Shown here: positions 6,881 to 56,700 of the stretch, piece by piece
How positions within the stretch are numbered: position 1 is the first letter of the stretch
How the letters are laid out: each line of letters opens with the position of its first letter
DNA from: an uncultured Chloroflexia bacterium
Lineage (GTDB): Bacteria; Chloroflexota; Limnocylindria; Limnocylindrales; CSP1-4
DNA: 64,000 bases
Assembly: GCA_963813535.1 (NCBI GenBank)
Contig: CAWEZH010000002.1
Span: 1,536,001-1,600,000, forward strand
Reading direction: 5' to 3'
The notes under the pieces: model-generated
Databases searched by the model: none
What the model was told of the DNA's origin: nothing
Seen by the model: the letters and a program-made list of their open reading frames with translations, nothing else
Translations under genes and position numbers: made by a program

Positions 6881-7119
6881 TCGGTCATGGGGTGACCGAA
6901 CGGACCGATGAGCCGCGGTCCGATGGCCTCCGCGAGCCGTTCGTTCGCCGGTTCGGTCATGGGGTGACCGAACGGACCGATGAGCCGCGGTCCGATGGCC
7001 TCCGCGAGCCGTTCGTTCGCCGGTTCGGTCATGGGGTGACCGAACGGACCGATGAGCCGCGGTCCGATGGCCTCCGCGAGCCGTTCGTTCGCCGGTTCGG
7101 TCATGGCGTGACCGAACGG
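6881..7119. repeat. 72-bp-period repeat-spacer array: 37-bp repeat GTTCGTTCGCCGGTTCGGTCATGGGGTGACCGAACGG with three identical 35-bp spacers
   Basis: Partial repeat 6881-6903; full repeats at 6939, 7011 and 7083. Each contains the hairpin GTTCGGTCA-N5-TGACCGAAC. Lies between convergent genes. Confidence 0.95.
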
Positions 7120-7126
7120 ATAGCCG

Positions 7127-35685: not shown

Positions 35686-36551
35686 GACCAGGCCGCCTCC
35701 CAGGCCACTTCCTCGCTCGCGAAGACCGGCCCCTCCCGGCAGACACGCTGGGGCGTGCCCGTCACGCTCATCACGACGCAGCCCAGGCACGCGCCGACGG
35801 CACAGCCCATGTTCTGCTCCATCGAGACCTGCAGGAACGCCTTGCGCCTGGCCCCTGGCGAACCGAGCGGATCGGCCCGACCAGCGCCTCGTTTTCGACC
35901 GAGGGCCGCCACACCGAGCCGTCCGCGGCGGCCCTCCGCGAGCCGGGCCAGCGCTCGGAGCATCGGGGTCGGACCGCAGGCAAAGGCCTGGTCTGCCCAG
36001 CTTTCGTACTGCGGGACGAGCTCCGTCACGAAGCCGCGGTGGCCGAGGGAGCCATCGTCTGTGGCGACGACGTACTCCACCTCGTCGGGCAGCAGGTTCG
36101 ACGGGTAGACCTCCCGCGCGGTGGTGGCGCCGAACAGCAGCGTCACCTGGCGACCGGCCTGGATCGCCTCGTCGGCCAGCATCCGGACACCGGCCATGCC
36201 CAGACCGCCCGCGATCAGGAGCAGGTGCCGACTCCGCGGATCGACCTCGAACGGCCGGCCGAGCGGCCCCAGCAGGTCGATGGCATCTCCCGCACGGAGC
36301 CGCGCGAACCACTCGGTGCCCCTGCCGATGACCCGGAAATGGATCGTGACGATGCCCGTCACTGGATCCGCCGTATTCAGCGAGAACGGCCGACGCAACA
36401 CCATCCCGGAGTAATCGCCGGTGCGGACATGGACGAACTGCCCGGCCCTCGAGCCGGTGGCCAGCTCGGGCGCGTGATAGGCCTGCAGCCACTGGCCGGG
36501 AAGGATCTCGCGGCTATCGACGAGCTCGGCGGCGGCGAGCCGCATGGTCAA
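35682..36551 (-). CDS. pyrK: Dihydroorotate dehydrogenase electron-transfer subunit
   Basis: LRRPFS, GPLG, IAGG.G, TDDGS.G, CGP..M, SME..MGC.VGAC.GC...RVC.EGPVF. Confidence 0.93.
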   Translation of the reverse strand: MTMRLAAAELVDSREILPGQWLQAYHAPELATGSRAGQFVHVRTGDYSGMVLRRPFSLNTADPVTGIVTIHFRVIGRGTEWFARLRAGDAIDLLGPLGRPFEVDPRSRHLLLIAGGLGMAGVRMLADEAIQAGRQVTLLFGATTAREVYPSNLLPDEVEYVVATDDGSLGHRGFVTELVPQYESWADQAFACGPTPMLRALARLAEGRRGRLGVAALGRKRGAGRADPLGSPGARRKAFLQVSMEQNMGCAVGACLGCVVMSVTGTPQRVCREGPVFASEEVAWEAAWS

Positions 36552-37621
36552 GCGGTCGGGCGGCCCTCCGCGCCCTCTCCTTCCTCGCGGTCCTCGGTAT
36601 CGCCGTCATCGGTGCCGTCCTCGGCTTGCTCTGTCGCTTCACCGTCGTCGTCGGCGACCGCGACCTCGACATCGCCCTCGACCGGATCCGTGGACGCGGT
36701 CTCCTCGCTGGGACCCGCGCCGTCGCCCTCCGTGGCCAGCTCGGGCGCGACCGCTGGATAGGCCTCGGCCAGGGCGTCGGCCAGGTCGCCGAACACATCC
36801 GTCGGGTCGTAGAACTCCACGAGCTGGTCGGGGCCGGTCAGGCTCCGCCACTGTCCGTCGGCCTCCTCGGGGATCACCTCGGCTCGGAACTCCCCGGCCG
36901 AGGTCAGGACGAGTCGCTCGTCGTCGTCGTCGACGATCACCAGCTCCCCGAGCAGGCCGGATGCCGGCCCCGCGGCGACCTCGAACTCGTCGAGCAGCCG
37001 TGATTCGCTGCGCTGGCTGCGCTCCTGGTATTCGAGCGCGAGGTCGTACAGCCGCCGGGCAGCCGCATCGTCGTCGTCGAGGTCCACCTGCTCCGGTTGG
37101 CCGGCGGCCCACGAGTCCGCGGCAGCCGCATACGGGTCCTCGCCGAGCGCCACCGTCTCTTCGGGCGAGATACCGGCGGCCTCGAGCATCTCGTCGCTCG
37201 CGGTCGGGGACTCGCCCATCCCGGCGGCCTCCTTGGCCGCTTCACTGAACGCGGAGAAGATGTCGGCCGGGTTGTAGAGCTCGACCAGCTCGGACGCCGA
37301 CTCGATGACCTCGGTCTCGCTCACCCAGTCGCCGGTCAGGTCGTCGAGGAAGCGCGTGCGGCTGCGGAACGTGCTGTCGGGTGCGATCGAGAGGTAATCG
37401 GGCTCCTCATCGATCAGCGTCAGCCCGCCGTAGGCGGCGATGCGCTCCTTGTGGCGGTCCAGGAACCGGCGCAGCTGGTCGGTCGACTGGACAAGGAAAT
37501 CGGACCGCTCGAGGGCGGCGTCCGCCGCGATCTCGCCGAGCAGGTCGTTGCGGCCCGTATCCATGGTTCGCCTCCTGTTCGGTTCGTCGCCGGGTGGCAG
37601 GACTTCGCGTCGGATGCTCAT
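36548..37621 (-). CDS. Acidic hypothetical protein with an internally duplicated domain
   Basis: Long GC3-biased ORF; stop overlaps the pyrK start; two related blocks ending LVELYNPADIF and LVEFYDPTDVF. Confidence 0.8.
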   Translation of the reverse strand: MSIRREVLPPGDEPNRRRTMDTGRNDLLGEIAADAALERSDFLVQSTDQLRRFLDRHKERIAAYGGLTLIDEEPDYLSIAPDSTFRSRTRFLDDLTGDWVSETEVIESASELVELYNPADIFSAFSEAAKEAAGMGESPTASDEMLEAAGISPEETVALGEDPYAAAADSWAAGQPEQVDLDDDDAAARRLYDLALEYQERSQRSESRLLDEFEVAAGPASGLLGELVIVDDDDERLVLTSAGEFRAEVIPEEADGQWRSLTGPDQLVEFYDPTDVFGDLADALAEAYPAVAPELATEGDGAGPSEETASTDPVEGDVEVAVADDDGEATEQAEDGTDDGDTEDREEGEGAEGRPTA

Positions 37622-37639
37622 CGTCTTGGGTCGTTCGGG

Positions 37640-37966
37640 TCAGCGATGGTATTCGAGGTTGGGTCCCATGCGCTCACGCAGGAACATCGAGTGGTGGCGT
37701 TCGAAGATCCACTCGCCGGCCCGATGGCCAAGCGCCCTGGTCGCCTCGTCGGCCTCGAGCTTGTCGAGCGTCCCATAGTCGGGCAGGTCGAGCAGGATGA
37801 CGTTGTCGAAGTCCCAGCCATGGGCGACGTTGTACCAGCCGATGAACCGGATCCCGAACCGCTCCTCGTATTCCTTCACCTGGCGCGGGAAGATCGTGCG
37901 CATGAAGAACTTGAAGAACGGGTCGCGGCCTCGGCGGACGGAGAAATAGGTCGCGAGAACGGGCAT
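37640..37966 (-). CDS. Small hypothetical protein (possible NIPSNAP-like dimeric alpha-beta barrel)
   Basis: GIRFIGWY....GW.FDNVILLDLPDY..LDKL; strong codon bias; CACAAT -10-like element upstream. Confidence 0.75.
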   Translation of the reverse strand: MPVLATYFSVRRGRDPFFKFFMRTIFPRQVKEYEERFGIRFIGWYNVAHGWDFDNVILLDLPDYGTLDKLEADEATRALGHRAGEWIFERHHSMFLRERMGPNLEYHR

Positions 37967-38048
37967 GGGGCCATTGTGTCATGGGGTCGCGGCCGGGGCG
38001 GGGTCGCTGGTGCGGAGAGTGACCCGGCGGGGCGGGAGTCGCGAGCCC

Positions 38049-38215
38049 TCGGTCACCCGGTGACCGAACGGGCGGTCAAGCGCTCGCCGCTGGCTCGATC
38101 CCGCTGGTTCGTTCGACGGTTCGGTCACGGGTTGACCAAGACGGTGCCTATACCTCAGCCGGAGGGTCGTCGGGTCCCGTTCGTTCGTCCATTCGGTCAC
38201 CCGGTGACGCGCCGG
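38049..38215. repeat. Second 72-bp-period repeat-spacer array (same repeat family as 6881-7119, distinct spacers)
   Basis: Partial repeat 38049-38071; repeats at 38107 (GTTCGTTCGACGGTTCGGTCACGGGTTGACC) and 38179 (GTTCGTTCGTCCATTCGGTCACCCGGTGAC); unrelated 35-bp spacers at 38072-38106 and 38144-38178. Confidence 0.85.
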
Positions 38216-38600
38216 CCGCCGAGCGACTCTCATCCTCGAGCTCGCCGACGGTCTTGCTGCCGCTCGCCATCGGTCGGCGGCGGCTGCGACGGTCGGCCGC
38301 CACCAATCGAAGCAGGAAGATGATCGTCTGGCCGGTCGTCAGCAGGAGCCCGATCACGACGAACAGCAGGATGGCGCTGACCGCCTCCGGCCAATGCCAC
38401 ATCGCGCTCAGTGGCGTCAGGACGATGAAGATCGCCAGCACGATGAGCTGGAACCGGAAGCAGCCGAGGCCGGGGCCGCGTTCAGCCTCGAGGTCGGCGC
38501 CTTTGTACTGGACGGGCCCCGTCGAGCGGGGCGGCCGTGGCGGCGTCGGGTCGGCGTCCGGGCCTGTCGGCGGGTCGGCGCTGGATTCGGGTCCGGTCAC
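38148..38600 (-). CDS. Small two-TM membrane protein
   Basis: Two hydrophobic helices after GPGLGCF; TATCGT -10 before GTG 38600; 3' end runs into the repeat array. Confidence 0.7.
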   Translation of the reverse strand: MTGPESSADPPTGPDADPTPPRPPRSTGPVQYKGADLEAERGPGLGCFRFQLIVLAIFIVLTPLSAMWHWPEAVSAILLFVVIGLLLTTGQTIIFLLRLVAADRRSRRRPMASGSKTVGELEDESRSAAGASPGDRMDERTGPDDPPAEV

Positions 38601-38626
38601 GAGCCGGAACGATACGGGAGGTCGCG

Positions 38627-39154
38627 TCAGGCTGTCGGCGGGTCGATGGCCAGGCCCTCGACGACCTCGACGCGCTGCAGCGCCGACAGGATCGACGGCG
38701 CCGCCAGCACCTTCCACGACCGCGATCCGCCGCCGAGGATGATGCGCTCCCGCCGCATCACTCGGCCGTCGACCCAGATCGGCAATCCGGCGGGCAGCCC
38801 GAACACGGTGACGCCGCCGATCTCCATGCCGGTGATGTCGCGGGTCGATTCGGCCGGAGCGAAGGACGCCTTTCGTGTCCCGAGGCGGTCGCGAACCGTT
38901 CGGTTCACGTCGAGCCGGTTCGGCGCGAGCACCACGCAGGCGGCATAGCGAGGCGGATCGCCCTTGCCGATGACGACGATCGTGTTCGCCGAATCCTCGG
39001 GCTCGAAGCCGTACGCGGCGCAGAACGCGGCCGTGTCAGCGAGGGCCGGGTCACACGGAAAGAGCTCGTAGTCGACGCCCAGCGCGTCGAGCGTGGCCAC
39101 CAGCCGCTCCCGGCCTTCGGGGTCGTGGCTGGTCGGGTCGATCTCGTCGGACAT
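38627..39154 (-). CDS. YbaK/EbsC-family aminoacyl-tRNA editing domain protein
   Basis: DP.LADTA.FC..YG....SAN, ITGM.IGGVT.FGLP, GGGSR..K. Confidence 0.88.
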   Translation of the reverse strand: MSDEIDPTSHDPEGRERLVATLDALGVDYELFPCDPALADTAAFCAAYGFEPEDSANTIVVIGKGDPPRYAACVVLAPNRLDVNRTVRDRLGTRKASFAPAESTRDITGMEIGGVTVFGLPAGLPIWVDGRVMRRERIILGGGSRSWKVLAAPSILSALQRVEVVEGLAIDPPTA

Positions 39155-39187
39155 GGCCCGAAGCGTAGTCGGTACCATCGACCCCGG

Positions 39188-40815
39188 ATGGCCGACCGAA
39201 CGACGCTCCAGTCCCCGACCGCACCGATGGACATCGACGCGTACCTAGAGCGTTTTGACTGGCACCCGGAGCCGGAGCTGATCGGCTACCGCGACGAGGC
39301 AGCGTCGCGGGCGGCGCTCGCATCGCTCGGGCAGCGGACGTGGCACGAGGCATTGGAATTCCTGTACGGCATCGCGACCGAGCGCGCGATGGGCGATCCA
39401 TCGACGTACGCCGAAGCCCGCCGACGGTATTACGCATCCGATCCAGCCGGCCCTCGGGATGGTCCTGGCCCGGCCCCGTCGGCGCCCATGCGCGCGACCG
39501 ACGTCGTCGACGAGTTCTCCGCCCGCCTGTCGCGCGGCCTGATGAATGCCCAGCACCCGCGCCAGTTCGGGTACTTCACGCCACCCCCGCTACCGATGTC
39601 GATCATGGGCGAGCTGCTCGCACAGATGACCAACCAGGGCGTCGACGTGTGGCATGCCGGTCCCTTCGCCGCCTTCGCCGAGGAAGAGGTCGTGTGCTGG
39701 CTGTGCGACCTGGTGGGCTACGGGCCGGACGGCTTCGGGCTCCTCACCAGCGGCGGCGTGATGGCCAATTTCATGGGGATGACGCTGGCGCGCGACCTGC
39801 GTCTCGGTCGCATCCGCGACCTGCCGGGGCCGCCGCGCGGGAAGGATCTCGAGGGCGCCCGGGTCTATACCAGCGACCAGACGCATTTCTCGATCGCGCG
39901 GGCGCTCGATGAGCTCGGGTTCCCGCCCCAGACGCTGGTCGTCCTCCCATCCGACGACGACTTCCACCTGCGTGGGGCCCCGGTCGCTGATGCCGTGACC
40001 CGCGACCGAGCGGCCGGTCTGACGCCATACGCCATCGCGGCTGTCGCGGGCTCGACCAACACGGGTTCGGTCGACGCCGTCGGCGAGCTGGCCGACGTGG
40101 CCGGGGCGGAGGGCCTGTGGCTGCACGTCGATGCGGCATACGGCGGCGGCGCACGGCTGACGGAACGGGACCGGGATCGCGTCCCGGACCTCGACCGCGC
40201 CGACTCGGTGACCGTCGACCCCCACAAGTGGTTCTTCCAGGCCTACGACATCGGCGGTCTGCTCGTCCGCGACCGCAGGACGTTGAGTGCCGTCTTCGGC
40301 GGTCGCGCGCCGGAGTACTACCGGGGTGGCGAAACGCCGGGCAGTGGCGTGCCCGACTACCTCCGCGACGGCGAGCACGACCCGTCGCACGACGACCAGC
40401 TCAACTTCTACAAGCTGTCGTTCGAGGGGACACGGCGCTGGCGTGCGCTGAAGCTGTGGATGACCTGGAAGCATCTGGGGACGCCGGGCTTCGGCCGGTT
40501 GATCGAGGCCAACGACGATCTCGCCGCGTACCTGGCCAGCCTGCTGCGCCGAGGCGGACGACTTCGAGGCCATACCCGAGAAGCCCGAGTTGTCGGTGGT
40601 CTGTTTCCGGCATGTGCCGGCGGGGCTCGATGGGCGAGGCACTCGACGCCCACCAGGATCGGCTGCAGGCGGCGCTCGAGCTCTCCGGCGACGGCTGGCT
40701 GACGACGACCCGCCTACGCGGCGCGACGTGGCTCCGCGCCGGGATCGTCAACTACCTCTCGACCGAGGCCGACATCGACCGGCTGCTCGACACCCTGCGT
40801 CGACTCGCCGTCTAG
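39188..40815 (+). CDS. Group II PLP-dependent amino-acid decarboxylase; frameshifts near 40541 and 40633
   Basis: HPR.FGYF, TSGG..AN, HFSI, AGSTNTGSVD, LHVDAAYGG, DSVTVDPHKW; the C-terminus (LSVVCFRH...WLR..IVNY) is in other frames. Confidence 0.88.
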
Positions 40816-53781: not shown

Positions 53782-56700
53782 TCAGGTCGACGGTTCCGCC
53801 GCCGGCTCGAGGGTCGTGCTCCTCCGCCCGATCCGTGAGACGCGCACCTTCAGACCGTCGATCAGCGAGTACACGGCAGGGATGACGAGCAGGGTCAGGA
53901 ACGTCGCACTCAGGAGTCCGCCGATCACCACGGTCCCGAGCTCCGCGGCGATGATCGAGCCCTCGTTGAAGCCTGCAGCGAGGGGCACGAGCGCGAGGAT
54001 CGTGGCGATCGCGGTCATGAGGATGGGCCGGATCCGTGTCCGGCCGCCCTCGATGAGCGCGTCCTTCGTCGAGTGGCCGTCGGCACGCAACCGCTCGACC
54101 AGATCGAGCAGCACGATGGCGTTGGTGACGACGATCCCGATGAGCATCAGGAACCCGATGAGGGCGCTGAGCCCGATGGGGCGGTTCGTGACCAACAGGG
54201 CCGGGAAGGCACCGATCGTCGCGAGCGGCAGCGTGAACAGGATGACGAACGGGGTGACGAGCGAGTTGAAGGCGAGGACCATCATCAGGTAGACGAGCAG
54301 GATCGCGACGCCCATGGCGGCGAAGAGGCCGCCGAACGCTTCACTCTGCTGCGCCGTCACGCCGGCAAGCTCGACCTGCGCGCTTGGCGGGATGGTGCCG
54401 TCGGCGCGCAGGTCGTCGATGACGCCCTGGACCGCGACCGACGTCGCGCCCGTGTCGCCGCTGGTGATCTCGGCCGAGATCGTCGCCGATGGGGCCTCGT
54501 CGATCCGGGTGATCCGTCCCTGGACGTCGGCCTGATCGACATCGGCGACGGTGTCGAGCGGGACCTTGCGCGTCATGCCGACGGGCAGATCGCGCAACGC
54601 GTCAACGGACGTGACGCTGGCGGGATCGACGCGGACGACCAGGTCGACGGGATCCGCGTCCTCGAGCTGCACGCGACCGAGTGTCTGCGGCGTCAACGCG
54701 TTGCGGACTTCACCGCCGATCTGGGCGGCGGTAGACCCGACACCGATGGCGCGACTCGGATCGACTCGCACCTGGACCTCCGGAGCGGCCTTGACGAGAT
54801 CGCTCGACAGGTTGGTCAGACCGGGCTCCTGCTCGAGTGCCACGAGGACGGCGTCGGAGGTCTCGGCGACGACGTCCGCGTCCTCGGCGCTCACGATCAG
54901 GCTGAGACCGTTCGAACTGAAACCACCCTGCTGCCCGACGGTCACTTCGAAGCCGTCGGTGCTCACGGGTGCCAGCTGATCGGCGAGCTGCTGCGTCTTC
55001 GCCTCAAGGTCGACCGACGGATCGAGGCGCACGATCATCCGGGCGCTGTTGGCGGCACGACCCTGCTGTGCGGCGAGGACGGTCTGGAAGCCGGTGTCGC
55101 CTTCGCCGGGCACGGTCGTGGCGACGAGGTCGACATCGGGGTCGGCCAGGAGGATCTCTTCAGCCTTCGCGGCCTGCTCGAGGACCTGCTCGGAGCCGGC
55201 GCCGGTCGGCGGTGCGACGGTGACCTGCAGGATCTTCTCCGAGCCCGAATCGATGAACGAGGTCGGGAGGAGCGGCACGAGTGCCAGCGAGGCAACGAAC
55301 AGCACCGCGGCGACGACGACCGTCCCGACTCGGGTCCAACGGTTGCGAAGCACGACCCGGATGGCCGGGTCGTACAAGCGCACCCAGAACGAGTTCTTGG
55401 GTTCACCGGTCTCGTCCACGGCGCCACTGACGTTCTTGACCAGGAAGTACGCGAGGACGGGGACGACCGTCAATGCCACGACGAGCGATGCGAGCAGCGC
55501 GAACGTGACGGTCAGCGAGAAGGACAGGAAGAACTGGCTGACGAACCCGCCGGCGAACCCGAGTGGCAGAAAGACAGCAACGGTGGTGAACGTGCTTGCG
55601 GTGATCGCGCTGGCGACCTCGCGCGGCCCCTCGATGACAGACGTCATCCGGTCGTGCCCGAGCGCCCGATGGCGATAGATGTTCTCGAGGACGACGATCG
55701 AATCGTCCACCACGCGCCCGATTGCCACCGCCAGGCCGCCGAGGGTCAGGATGTTCAGGGTGATCCCGGCGGCCTGCATGATCACGAGCGCTGCAAGGAT
55801 CGAGAGCGGGATGCTGACCGCCGCGACAAAGGTCGATCGCACGTTGGCCAGGAACAGGAAGATCGTGATCACGGCGAAGACGGCCCCGAGACCGCCCTCG
55901 CGCAGCAGCCCCTCGCTCGATTCGAGGATGAAGGACGACTGATCGGCGATGGTGACGATGGCGATCTCGCCGGGGTGACGCAGCGCGATCTCGTCGAGCT
56001 TGGCCTGGACCGCCTCGGCAACGGCGACGGTGTTGGCGGCGCTGGTCTTGCTGACCGAGATGGTGACGGCCGGTTGGCCGTTGGTTCGCGCATAGCCGGT
56101 CGTCGCGACGTCCGCGAGCTCGACCGACCCGAGATCGCCGATGGTGATGGGCTGGGGCACGACCGGGGTCGGGGGTGTGGTCGGGGTGGTCGGCGTCGTC
56201 GGGTGGTCGGCGTGGTCGGCGTGGTCGGGGTGGTCGGCGTCCGGACGCCGACGACGAGGTCCTCGATCTGCGCGACGGACTCGAAGCGACCGATCGTCGA
56301 TACCGGGATCTGCTCGCCGTCGACCGACAGCTGGCCACCCGGCAGCGTCAGGTTGTTGGCCTGGAGGATCCCGGTCACCTGCTGGACCGAGACGCCGGCC
56401 TCCGACAGCTTGTCTGGGTCCAGCGTGATCTCGAGTCGTGTCTCCAGGCCACCCGCGAGGTCCGCCGATGCGACGCCCGGGAGCGAGAGGATCTCGGGGA
56501 TGAGCTCTGTCCGGGCGATCTCGGCAGCCTGGTCCAGGCTGGTCTCGCCCTGGGCCGAGACCGAGGCGACGACGACCGGCGCCGCGTTGAAGTCGAAGGA
56601 GCCGACGGTCGGCTCGACGCCGTCGGGCAAGGGCGTGCTGCGGAGGTTCTCCTCGATCGTCGCGACCGCCTCGTCGAGGTTCGTGCCGTAATCGAACTGG

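Follow-up and report, generated by a model that had tools for sequence, protein, structure and literature searches.

Palindromic repeat arrays in uncultured soil Chloroflexia with core-to-core distances in steps of about 10.5 bp

Mycobacterial minisatellites of the MIRU type are built of head-to-tail units of 40-100 bp, occupy intergenic sites by housekeeping genes, vary in copy number and fall into discrete length classes. They are not known to be built round a perfect palindrome and are described with small ORFs overlapping the flanking genes. Plasmid iterons and the sopC centromere are arrays of phased protein-binding sites. The passages on REP elements cited here describe REP dimers that are mainly head-to-head and BIMEs whose units alternate (PMC2817692, PMC3733652), with more than 100 copies per genome by one account (PMC2817692) and 20-100 or fewer allowed by another (PMC3733652). 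Dimers of Ss-LrpB, in the cited part of the source, bind regularly spaced 15-bp palindromes and wrap the DNA (PMC4046817). Finally, the IESs of Paramecium are described, again in the cited passages, as having a size step of about 10 bp, the first class lying at 26-28 bp and the second being nearly empty; this ladder is explained there by end proteins that need the same helical face (PMC3464196).

The window, that is, the whole analysed stretch of 64,000 nucleotides, corresponds to C2:1536001-1600000 of the source genome (G000; 3.28 Mb, 3 contigs, 69.5% G+C, 92.9% complete). It contains two arrays, A and B (Table 1). The three evenly spaced repeats reported by a first-pass annotation are real: the cores of array B start at 38049, 38121 and 38193, with a step of exactly 72 bp each time, and follow the 19-bp palindromic pattern TCGGTCAC-SSS-GTGACCGA. 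The claim that arrays A and B belong to one repeat family with a 72-bp period also holds, as the 19-mer with at most 3 mismatches gave 11 strand-matches at 7 sites in the window, four in array A and three in array B. The expectation from dinucleotide shuffling is 0.08, and none of 100 shuffles reached 11.

The cores of array B differ from one another at 2-4 of the 19 positions, and the flanking blocks differ more. Core 1 is the first module and is without the left-hand block (nhmmer E 2.9e-6 to 1.3e-5). The module of core 2 scores E 5e-8, and core 3 contains a 16-nt exact repeat of core 1. In linker 1 a conserved right-hand block, ACGGGCGGTCAAGC, is followed by about 21 variable bp and by the conserved left-hand block of the next module, GGTTCGTTCGACGGT. 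The two 35-nt spacers proposed earlier lie within linker 1 (38072-38106) and linker 2 (38144-38178) and are both present as quoted. However, they are not wholly unrelated to each other, as the ends of the linkers, about 14 and about 18 nt, are family consensus.

The start of the 108-aa ORF is 82 bp from core 1, so that array B lies between two co-directional genes. Core 3 overlaps the 3' end of the minus-strand membrane-protein ORF, whose last ~20 codons (..SPGDRMDERTGPDDPPAEV and stop) are read from core 3 and linker 2. The small membrane protein and its SPGDR-DER tail are conserved in three related genomes (G024, G088 and G135). In one RNA run, available as contigs that are silent on transcript ends or absence, the 108-aa gene was covered to 38043, and array B and the membrane-protein gene were uncovered; shares in the sequencing runs used were at most 0.33.

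Table 1. Features of arrays A and B and the ORFs beside array B (window positions).
Feature	Positions	Strand	Description
Array A	6881..7115	+	4 cores, 72-bp period, identical linkers
108-aa ORF	37640..37966	-	no Pfam match
Array B core 1	38049..38067	.	perfect 19-bp palindrome TCGGTCACCCGGTGACCGA; 0 mismatches
Array B linker 1	38068..38120	+	53 bp; family consensus at both ends
Array B core 2	38121..38139	.	degenerate copy TCGGTCACGGGTTGACCAA; 3 mismatches, - strand
Array B linker 2	38140..38192	+	53 bp; 3' end is CCCGTTCGTTCGTCCAT
Array B core 3	38193..38211	.	TCGGTCACCCGGTGACGCG; starts TCGGTCACCCGGTGAC, right side divergent
Small membrane protein ORF	38148..38717	-	no Pfam match

The anatomy of the repeat was derived from an alignment of 28 linkers of the 72-bp class. 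The linker consensus begins, over its first ~14 nt, with ACGGACGG..GAGC and ends, over its last ~18 nt, with GGCCGTTCGTTCGTCCGT; the middle ~21 nt are free, and about 32 of the 53 linker positions are family consensus. Since both linker ends are consensus, what repeats is really a module of about 51 bp containing the palindrome, which leaves about 21 bp of free spacer instead of 35. The module consists of a left block (..GTTCGTTCGTCSGT), the 19-bp palindrome and a right block (ACGGRCGG..GAGC). Within an array 2-5 modules follow one another head to tail, with free sequence between them, and all modules of an array have the same orientation wherever the asymmetric blocks allow it to be read. The array formula is core-(linker-core)n, with a bare core at both ends of every array. 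As the first-pass annotation had noticed for arrays A and B, arrays start with a truncated repeat: all seven arrays of the source genome open with a bare core, the left-hand block being present on internal cores only. In oriented modules the bases abutting the core are mostly GGT or CGT on the left and mostly ACGG on the right, and the centre triplet is all G/C in 89 of 98 distinct cores (summed over the tabulated cores).

Two further observations concern the linkers. GATC occurs in 11 of 49 linkers, against a shuffled mean of 6.0 and maximum of 12, and is not significant. A 16-mer of the first spacer of array B recurs 64 bp upstream of array C1a; given its different register there and a further copy at C2:365543, it is ascribed to chance.

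Collecting the arrays of the genome, a check proposed with the first-pass annotation, gave seven by motif scans (C1:185975; C2:750201, 981368 and 1090527; array A at C2:1542881; array B at C2:1574049; C3:44397). The nhmmer matches of a 34-module profile at E<0.01 were confined to these seven arrays, with 26 modules and no solo modules. The modules are intergenic, except for a last module that overlaps a gene 3' end. Array A (6881-7120), in which a 72-bp unit is repeated in tandem 3.3 times with 99% matches, is a recent tandem duplication; it is flanked by convergent genes for a TPM/DUF2207 protein and a GNAT acetyltransferase. Since the spacers are identical or near-identical in arrays A and C3a, both are plain tandem duplications. 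A weak match at C3:331004 and loci L023-L026 and L028, considered as solo cores, lie within conserved protease-like coding sequence and were dropped. The GC skew of the source genome is too weak for placing the origin or terminus.

The core pattern was found in 12 of the 130 other genomes of the genus and in none of 16 from the neighbouring family. True arrays, after removal of single matches inside the protease gene, are present in about 10 of the 131 genus genomes, the relatives compared being MAGs throughout and many of them incomplete. A scan of 185,579 species (one genome each) yielded 59 loci, and multi-core arrays among them were seen only in MAGs labelled 'uncultured Chloroflexia', in one contig under another name matching G053, and in one Patulibacter contig. 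The latter, from a MAG, has a pair of modules with a spacing of 61 bp; a tRNA-Ser gene lies 80 bp upstream of them. A scan of metagenomes added 13 loci with at least two core-like matches, most of which look like arrays; one locus (L122) is probably due to chance. Array B is a member of a lineage-restricted, non-coding family of palindromic repeat arrays from a few uncultured soil Chloroflexia.

The core-to-core distances of this family form a ladder of 29, 50/51, 61/62, 71/72, 81-83, 92/94 and 103 bp. The data set comprises 86 adjacent core pairs, with 70 distinct linkers (at most 80% alike). These are distributed as follows: four at 29 bp, one at 48, three at 50, four at 51, one at 58, 13 at 61, two at 62, seven at 71, 25 at 72, one at 75, one at 81, three at 82, and one each at 83, 85, 92, 94 and 103 bp. 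No more than 1.25 bp separates 62 of the 70 from the series 29+10.5k, whereas a uniform spread would place 16.7 there; the ladder was recognised post hoc, and these counts overstate independence, as the arrays are related within and between genomes. The Rayleigh peak is at 10.5-10.8 bp for the 70 linkers and at 10.4-10.7 bp for an earlier set of 49. For the six class means the null fraction is 0.005.

Lengths agree within 1 bp among the 25 distinct 72-bp linkers and among the 13 distinct 61-bp linkers, whereas flanks vary by tens of bp. Different classes are mixed inside single arrays (71/83/61; 62/61/51; 61/51; 94/103), and the class differs at one orthologous locus, C2a, with 72 bp in G000 and G024 versus 58-61 bp in G088. 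It follows from these differences that the length probably changed at least six separate times, each time by 9-12 bp. Two observations count against helical phasing. Firstly, eight of the 70 linkers are off the ladder (48, 58, 62, 62, 75, 83, 85 and 94 bp). Secondly, no whole number of 10.5-bp turns makes up the distances (72/10.5 = 6.86); it is the step alone that fits.

The first-pass annotation had seen in the even spacing and free sequence of the linkers a length constraint, which it ascribed to acquisition machinery, RNA processing or phased protein binding. The constraint stood up, and its ruler is probably the DNA helix, the periods being quantised at the helical-repeat step. Acquisition machinery is unsupported, and the option favoured by the ladder is phased protein binding. 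Freely varying spacer lengths had been named as an observation that would speak against the interpretation as a whole; the periods do vary, between 29 and 103 bp, but in quantised steps.

Phased protein binding to double-stranded DNA is the most likely explanation in view of the helical-repeat step, the lack of an RNA-specific signal and the dimer-sized palindrome. In full, this would be a REP/minisatellite-like family whose palindromes are bound as double-stranded DNA by a putative dimeric protein, with helically phased spacing, an account to which we give about an even chance. The palindromes would then act as double-stranded DNA, each of them bound by a dimer of a putative DNA-binding protein. 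Adjacent dimers would have to touch, and only the lengths that keep the same rotational setting would survive, giving distances of 29 + ~10.5k bp. Such a complex could serve the host, in regulation or DNA organisation, or only the spread and maintenance of the repeat itself; the presence of the family in no more than about 10 of 131 genomes speaks against a role of importance to the host. A more specific proposal is possible, although we lean somewhat against it. The arrays may be phase-locked platforms, on which a putative dimeric protein binds each 19-bp palindrome and bridges its neighbours in a wrapped Lrp-like or a transpososome-like complex, selection on the contact keeping the ladder.

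Once present, arrays are vertically inherited. Orthologues of array B with the same flanks were found in G024 (4 cores; 72/72/75) and in G088 and G135 (3 cores; 72/72). The linkers of these three other species are still recognisably homologous but strongly diverged by substitution: linker 1 is about 70% like its G024 orthologue (judged by eye), and linker 2 has its orthologue in the last linker of the G024 array, a linker with 3 additional bp. The flanks to the next gene are 82, 55 and 78 bp, yet the periods stay 72 bp, which is the part of the claimed length constraint that comparison of species upholds. The 'spacers' are a free stretch decaying by point substitution, not acquired DNA. Comparison of the spacers with viral, plasmid and self sequences, another of the proposed checks, produced no protospacer: 50,697 phage records yielded nothing, the matches in plasmids all had E>=0.04, and self matches were limited to chance matches of 12-16 nt and one of 22 nt with 2 mismatches.

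Presence and absence at orthologous loci, also among the checks proposed, were observed. The array A site is empty in G088, where 9 bp separate the two stop codons, and in G138, where the stop codons overlap; in G017 it consists of 76 bp without a core. In G024 half of the first core survives next to the left flank, beyond which a deletion has taken out the GNAT gene. At the C2c site four cores are present in G000, one in G024 and none in G138 or G017, where the site is empty. At C2a the core counts across relatives are 3 vs 2 vs at least 5, the G088 array consisting of at least five near-identical units. In one metagenome DNA contig 25 other letters stand between 38015 and 38156 in place of 38016-38155, so that two cores are lost; a second contig spans the whole of array B with no indel inside it. 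No target-site duplication is visible at the filled versus empty sites of arrays A and C2c, and the array A insertion brought non-repeat DNA along. From one related species to another, arrays appear, grow, shrink and disappear; the sites are ordinary intergenic ones, with gene 3' ends favoured over starts.

No gene recurs beside the arrays among the 66 flanking ORFs (17 at the arrays of the source genome and 49 elsewhere), and the gene-family association that was to be looked for was not found. The flanking ORFs are unrelated housekeeping genes, e.g. FtsH, ETF, GNATs, ribosomal protein S9, SecD, MraZ and ligase, and Cas, integrase and transposase domains are absent from all 66. The genes on either side of an array may be convergent or co-directional, and at three loci the array separates two divergent starts. 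By our own tally, in which orthologues are not independent, about 36 stops and about 20 starts flank the arrays. Four of the seven arrays of the source genome end 10-20 bp past a stop codon; array B, a fifth, overlaps a gene 3' end. Three transposase models were searched in this genome. Y1_Tnp (PF01797), the RAYT domain, gave no match there, while the control search matches 6 of 14 genomes. DDE_Tnp_1 gave none, and the one match of rve has an internal TAG stop and is far from all arrays. Cas1 (PF01867), the one cas family searched genome-wide, also had no match in this 92.9%-complete genome, with matches in 7 of 14 known genomes in the control search.

One possibility is that no protein is involved, and that the family is a neutral or selfish minisatellite that spreads by rare insertion and grows by local slippage or unequal recombination. 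Its length classes would be inherited, and the ~10.5-bp step would be a coincidence or the result of an indel bias. In favour of this are the patchiness of the family, the lack of associated genes among the flanking ORFs and the poverty of the genome in transposases, as judged from DDE_Tnp_1 and rve. Arrays A and C3a are near-identical tandem copies, and copy number varies among close relatives and among metagenome alleles. On the other hand, the cores and flanking blocks are conserved, whereas the linker middle is saturated with change. The distinct linkers of two classes keep their length within 1 bp, whereas the flanks at the same loci differ by tens of bp, and each of the at least six class changes falls within 9-12 bp. 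We consider this explanation rather unlikely, but it deserves serious attention.

Another possibility, in our opinion a distinctly poorer one, is that the element acts at the RNA level. In that case transcribed hairpins in 3'-UTRs or intergenic regions would stop transcription or shield the mRNA upstream of them from 3' exonucleases; this has been proposed for REPs, many of which, according to the passages cited here, are plausibly transcribed and act as RNA (PMC3733652). The location of arrays close to stop codons and the stem, a G+C-rich 8-bp helix, agree with this. Moreover, although most changes among the 98 distinct cores are one-sided, four internal pairs have changed on both sides and are still complementary (e.g. 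TCCGTCA..TGACGGA and GGTCGC..GCGACC). These compensatory double changes hint at selection for pairing, in a hairpin or a cruciform, and count against the protein-phasing reading. However, transition mismatches in the stem, read on the unit-oriented strand, show no strand bias, with 36 of the G.T type vs 42 of the A.C type (orientation is ambiguous in 10 of 36 arrays). The three loci between divergent gene starts do not fit a 3'-UTR element. No terminator-like site with a T-tract and no sigma-70-like site was found at 37900-38300, and a scan of 36000-40000 with Rfam 15 at E up to 10, the comparison suggested with the first-pass annotation, gave six weak matches, none of which, CRISPR-DR or other, overlaps 38049-38215. 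Folding of array B is weakly exceptional against shuffles (z -2.3 as RNA of the minus strand, -1.15 as DNA). Finally, a hairpin offers no reason for a 10.5-bp spacing ladder.

Two candidate long stems were considered and rejected by three permutation tests; neither paired better than permuted or shuffled partners, a result that also speaks against an RNA element. For the linker ends as a covarying stem, duplexes within the same linker had -11.4 kcal/mol vs -12.4 across arrays. For the blocks flanking the core, the values were -9.9 and -10.3 for the same core vs -12.4 and -12.2 across genomes and -10.1 for shuffled sequences.

The reading preferred in the first-pass annotation, a CRISPR-like adaptive array of an undescribed kind with a 37-bp repeat, 35-bp spacers acquired by a ruler and an effector elsewhere, can point to the evenly spaced palindromic repeats, the two different spacers of array B and the truncated first repeat of all arrays, but it is contradicted on most defining features and extremely improbable: repeats within an array are not identical, each 'spacer' is partly family consensus, the same spacer is repeated within arrays A and C3a, the same spacers are inherited in four species with point changes, protospacers, Cas1 and a recurrent neighbour were not found, and the periods range from 29 to 103 bp.

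Binding of the palindromes as double-stranded DNA remains the reading that we prefer. The ladder would then be a purely genomic signal of selection on the geometry of double-stranded DNA, not RNA, in a REP-like repeat, and the 19-bp palindrome together with the allowed and forbidden spacings provides a handle for finding the protein that reads it in an uncultured lineage. If, on the contrary, the ladder arose as a by-product of descent, this is just another intergenic repeat confined to one lineage, and of little consequence. In either case, such loci are a typical 'orphan CRISPR' false positive, and the feature-by-feature reasons given here help in the triage of similar finds.

Among the known systems, the family resembles CRISPR arrays in its regularly interspaced, partly palindromic repeats, dissimilar intervening sequence and degenerate terminal repeat. 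It differs from them in the non-uniform repeats, in having 2-5 units per array, and in a spacer length that is quantised across the family rather than fixed. Unlike MITEs, it shows no target-site duplication at arrays A and C2c. It does not pass as CRISPR; it combines a REP/BIME-like palindrome with minisatellite-like changes of copy number.

The likeness to REPs and BIMEs, as far as these are described in the cited passages, includes an extragenic palindrome that is short and rich in G+C and has an 8-bp stem, restriction to a lineage, clustering at regular spacing, location mostly at gene 3' ends and variable number. However, modules within arrays are head to tail only, and there are 26 of them in seven arrays of the source genome with no solo copies, a number below the hundreds usual for REPs but within the range of 20-100 or fewer that PMC3733652 allows. 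There is no invariant GTAG or CGTC abutting the stem, the tag given in the cited part of PMC3733652; CGTC is seen only inside the left block of some copies. No RAYT was found, but some REP classes (the CGTC type) are likewise described there as being without a dedicated transposase (PMC3733652). The ~10.5-bp ladder is a further difference: in full-text literature outside subscription journals we found no report of such a ladder in REPs or other bacterial intergenic palindromes, nor of this repeat family.

With minisatellites and VNTRs the family shares head-to-tail units and variable copy number, array B having three cores in G000 vs four in G024. Unlike in MIRUs, conservation is confined to the core and flanking blocks, and the units, of 51, 61, 72 and 82 bp, are mostly not multiples of 3 in length. 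The dimer-size palindrome, the 2-5 repeats and the distances tied to the helical repeat are similar to the situation in Ss-LrpB boxes and are consistent with cooperative binding or wrapping. However, the arrays bound by Ss-LrpB, the iterons and sopC belong to one regulatory, replication or partition locus beside the gene of the binder, whereas here seven arrays are scattered among housekeeping neighbours.

The ladder itself is most similar to that of the Paramecium IESs, with a step of about 10 bp, free sequence between conserved ends, a first class near 26-29 bp and a next class that is nearly empty. IESs are eukaryotic, are excised, have TA ends and a known domesticated transposase, whereas the arrays show no sign of excision. 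If the arrays indeed are phase-locked platforms, this would be a bacterial repeat family with the helical length signature so far described for Paramecium IESs, and a sign of a protein-DNA system still to be discovered in uncultured soil Chloroflexia.

The C-terminal tail of the small membrane protein whose gene overlaps array B (SPGDR-DER..) is encoded by the repeat and is kept in four species. Within the part of this ORF that encodes the G/P-rich N-terminal region, 24 nt are missing from two metagenome DNA contigs. This absence looks like an in-frame length polymorphism.

A second coding sequence touched by the core is a conserved, protease-like one (..AAAGNELHDLGHPVTDE..), which holds the exact 19-bp palindrome in six or more congeneric genomes, some of them without arrays. 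Here the palindrome encodes the peptide LGHPVTD. It may be a coincidence, or it may be the origin of the array core.

Two array sites differ in relatives. The orthologue of array A in G024, another genome of the genus, is severed halfway through its first core (TCGGTCATGGG), approximately 80 nt beyond the TAG of the TPM/DUF2207 gene, and the adjoining GNAT gene is deleted together with the rest of the array. This places a deletion breakpoint at the centre of the palindrome. The intergenic region of G135 orthologous to array C2c of the source genome has 232 bp instead of an array, and contains two copies of a different palindrome of about 22 bp (GATGCGACGAAATCG.CGCATC).

Other observations concern the array ends. 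Six arrays of the congeneric genome G071 end on one side in a pair of cores spaced 29 bp (10-bp gap); no such pairs were seen in the other genomes. Short tandem repeats of other kinds, of approximately 21-29 bp, occur immediately past the last core of arrays G024c, G071i and G145a, e.g. GACCGAACCTGGCGGTTC in two copies.

As regards mobile elements, the source genome has a single match to rve (integrase core), with an in-frame TAG inside, and no match to DDE_Tnp_1 or the Y1 transposase was found in it. Therefore this genome looks poor in insertion sequences.

Coordinates of the features (window positions, or contigs and fetched loci)
Feature	Position	Method	Remark
Small membrane protein gene	window 38148-38717 (-)		no Pfam match; takes in core 3 of array B and a portion of its linker 2
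24-nt absence	window 38559-38587
9-bp tandem repeat (GTGGTCGGC, 7.2 copies)	window 56177-56240	Tandem Repeats Finder
rve match	C2:285302-285613 (L184)
Palindrome in protease-like sequence	source genome C3:331004-331022; L023-L026 and L028, near position 1000
Severed array A	L170 (G024:C1:283278-287268)
Array C2c site in G135	L179/L183
G071 arrays with 29-bp core pair	L029, L106, L108-L111
Tandem repeats past last core	right flanks of G024c (L013), G071i (L110), G145a (L030)
Patulibacter modules	L076 434-700

The sole array found beyond the Chloroflexia genus is a pair of modules, 61 bp apart, on a contig of a Patulibacter MAG, 80 bp downstream of tRNA-Ser(GGA). Their 19-bp core is of the same type as in the Chloroflexia arrays, and their flanking blocks differ.
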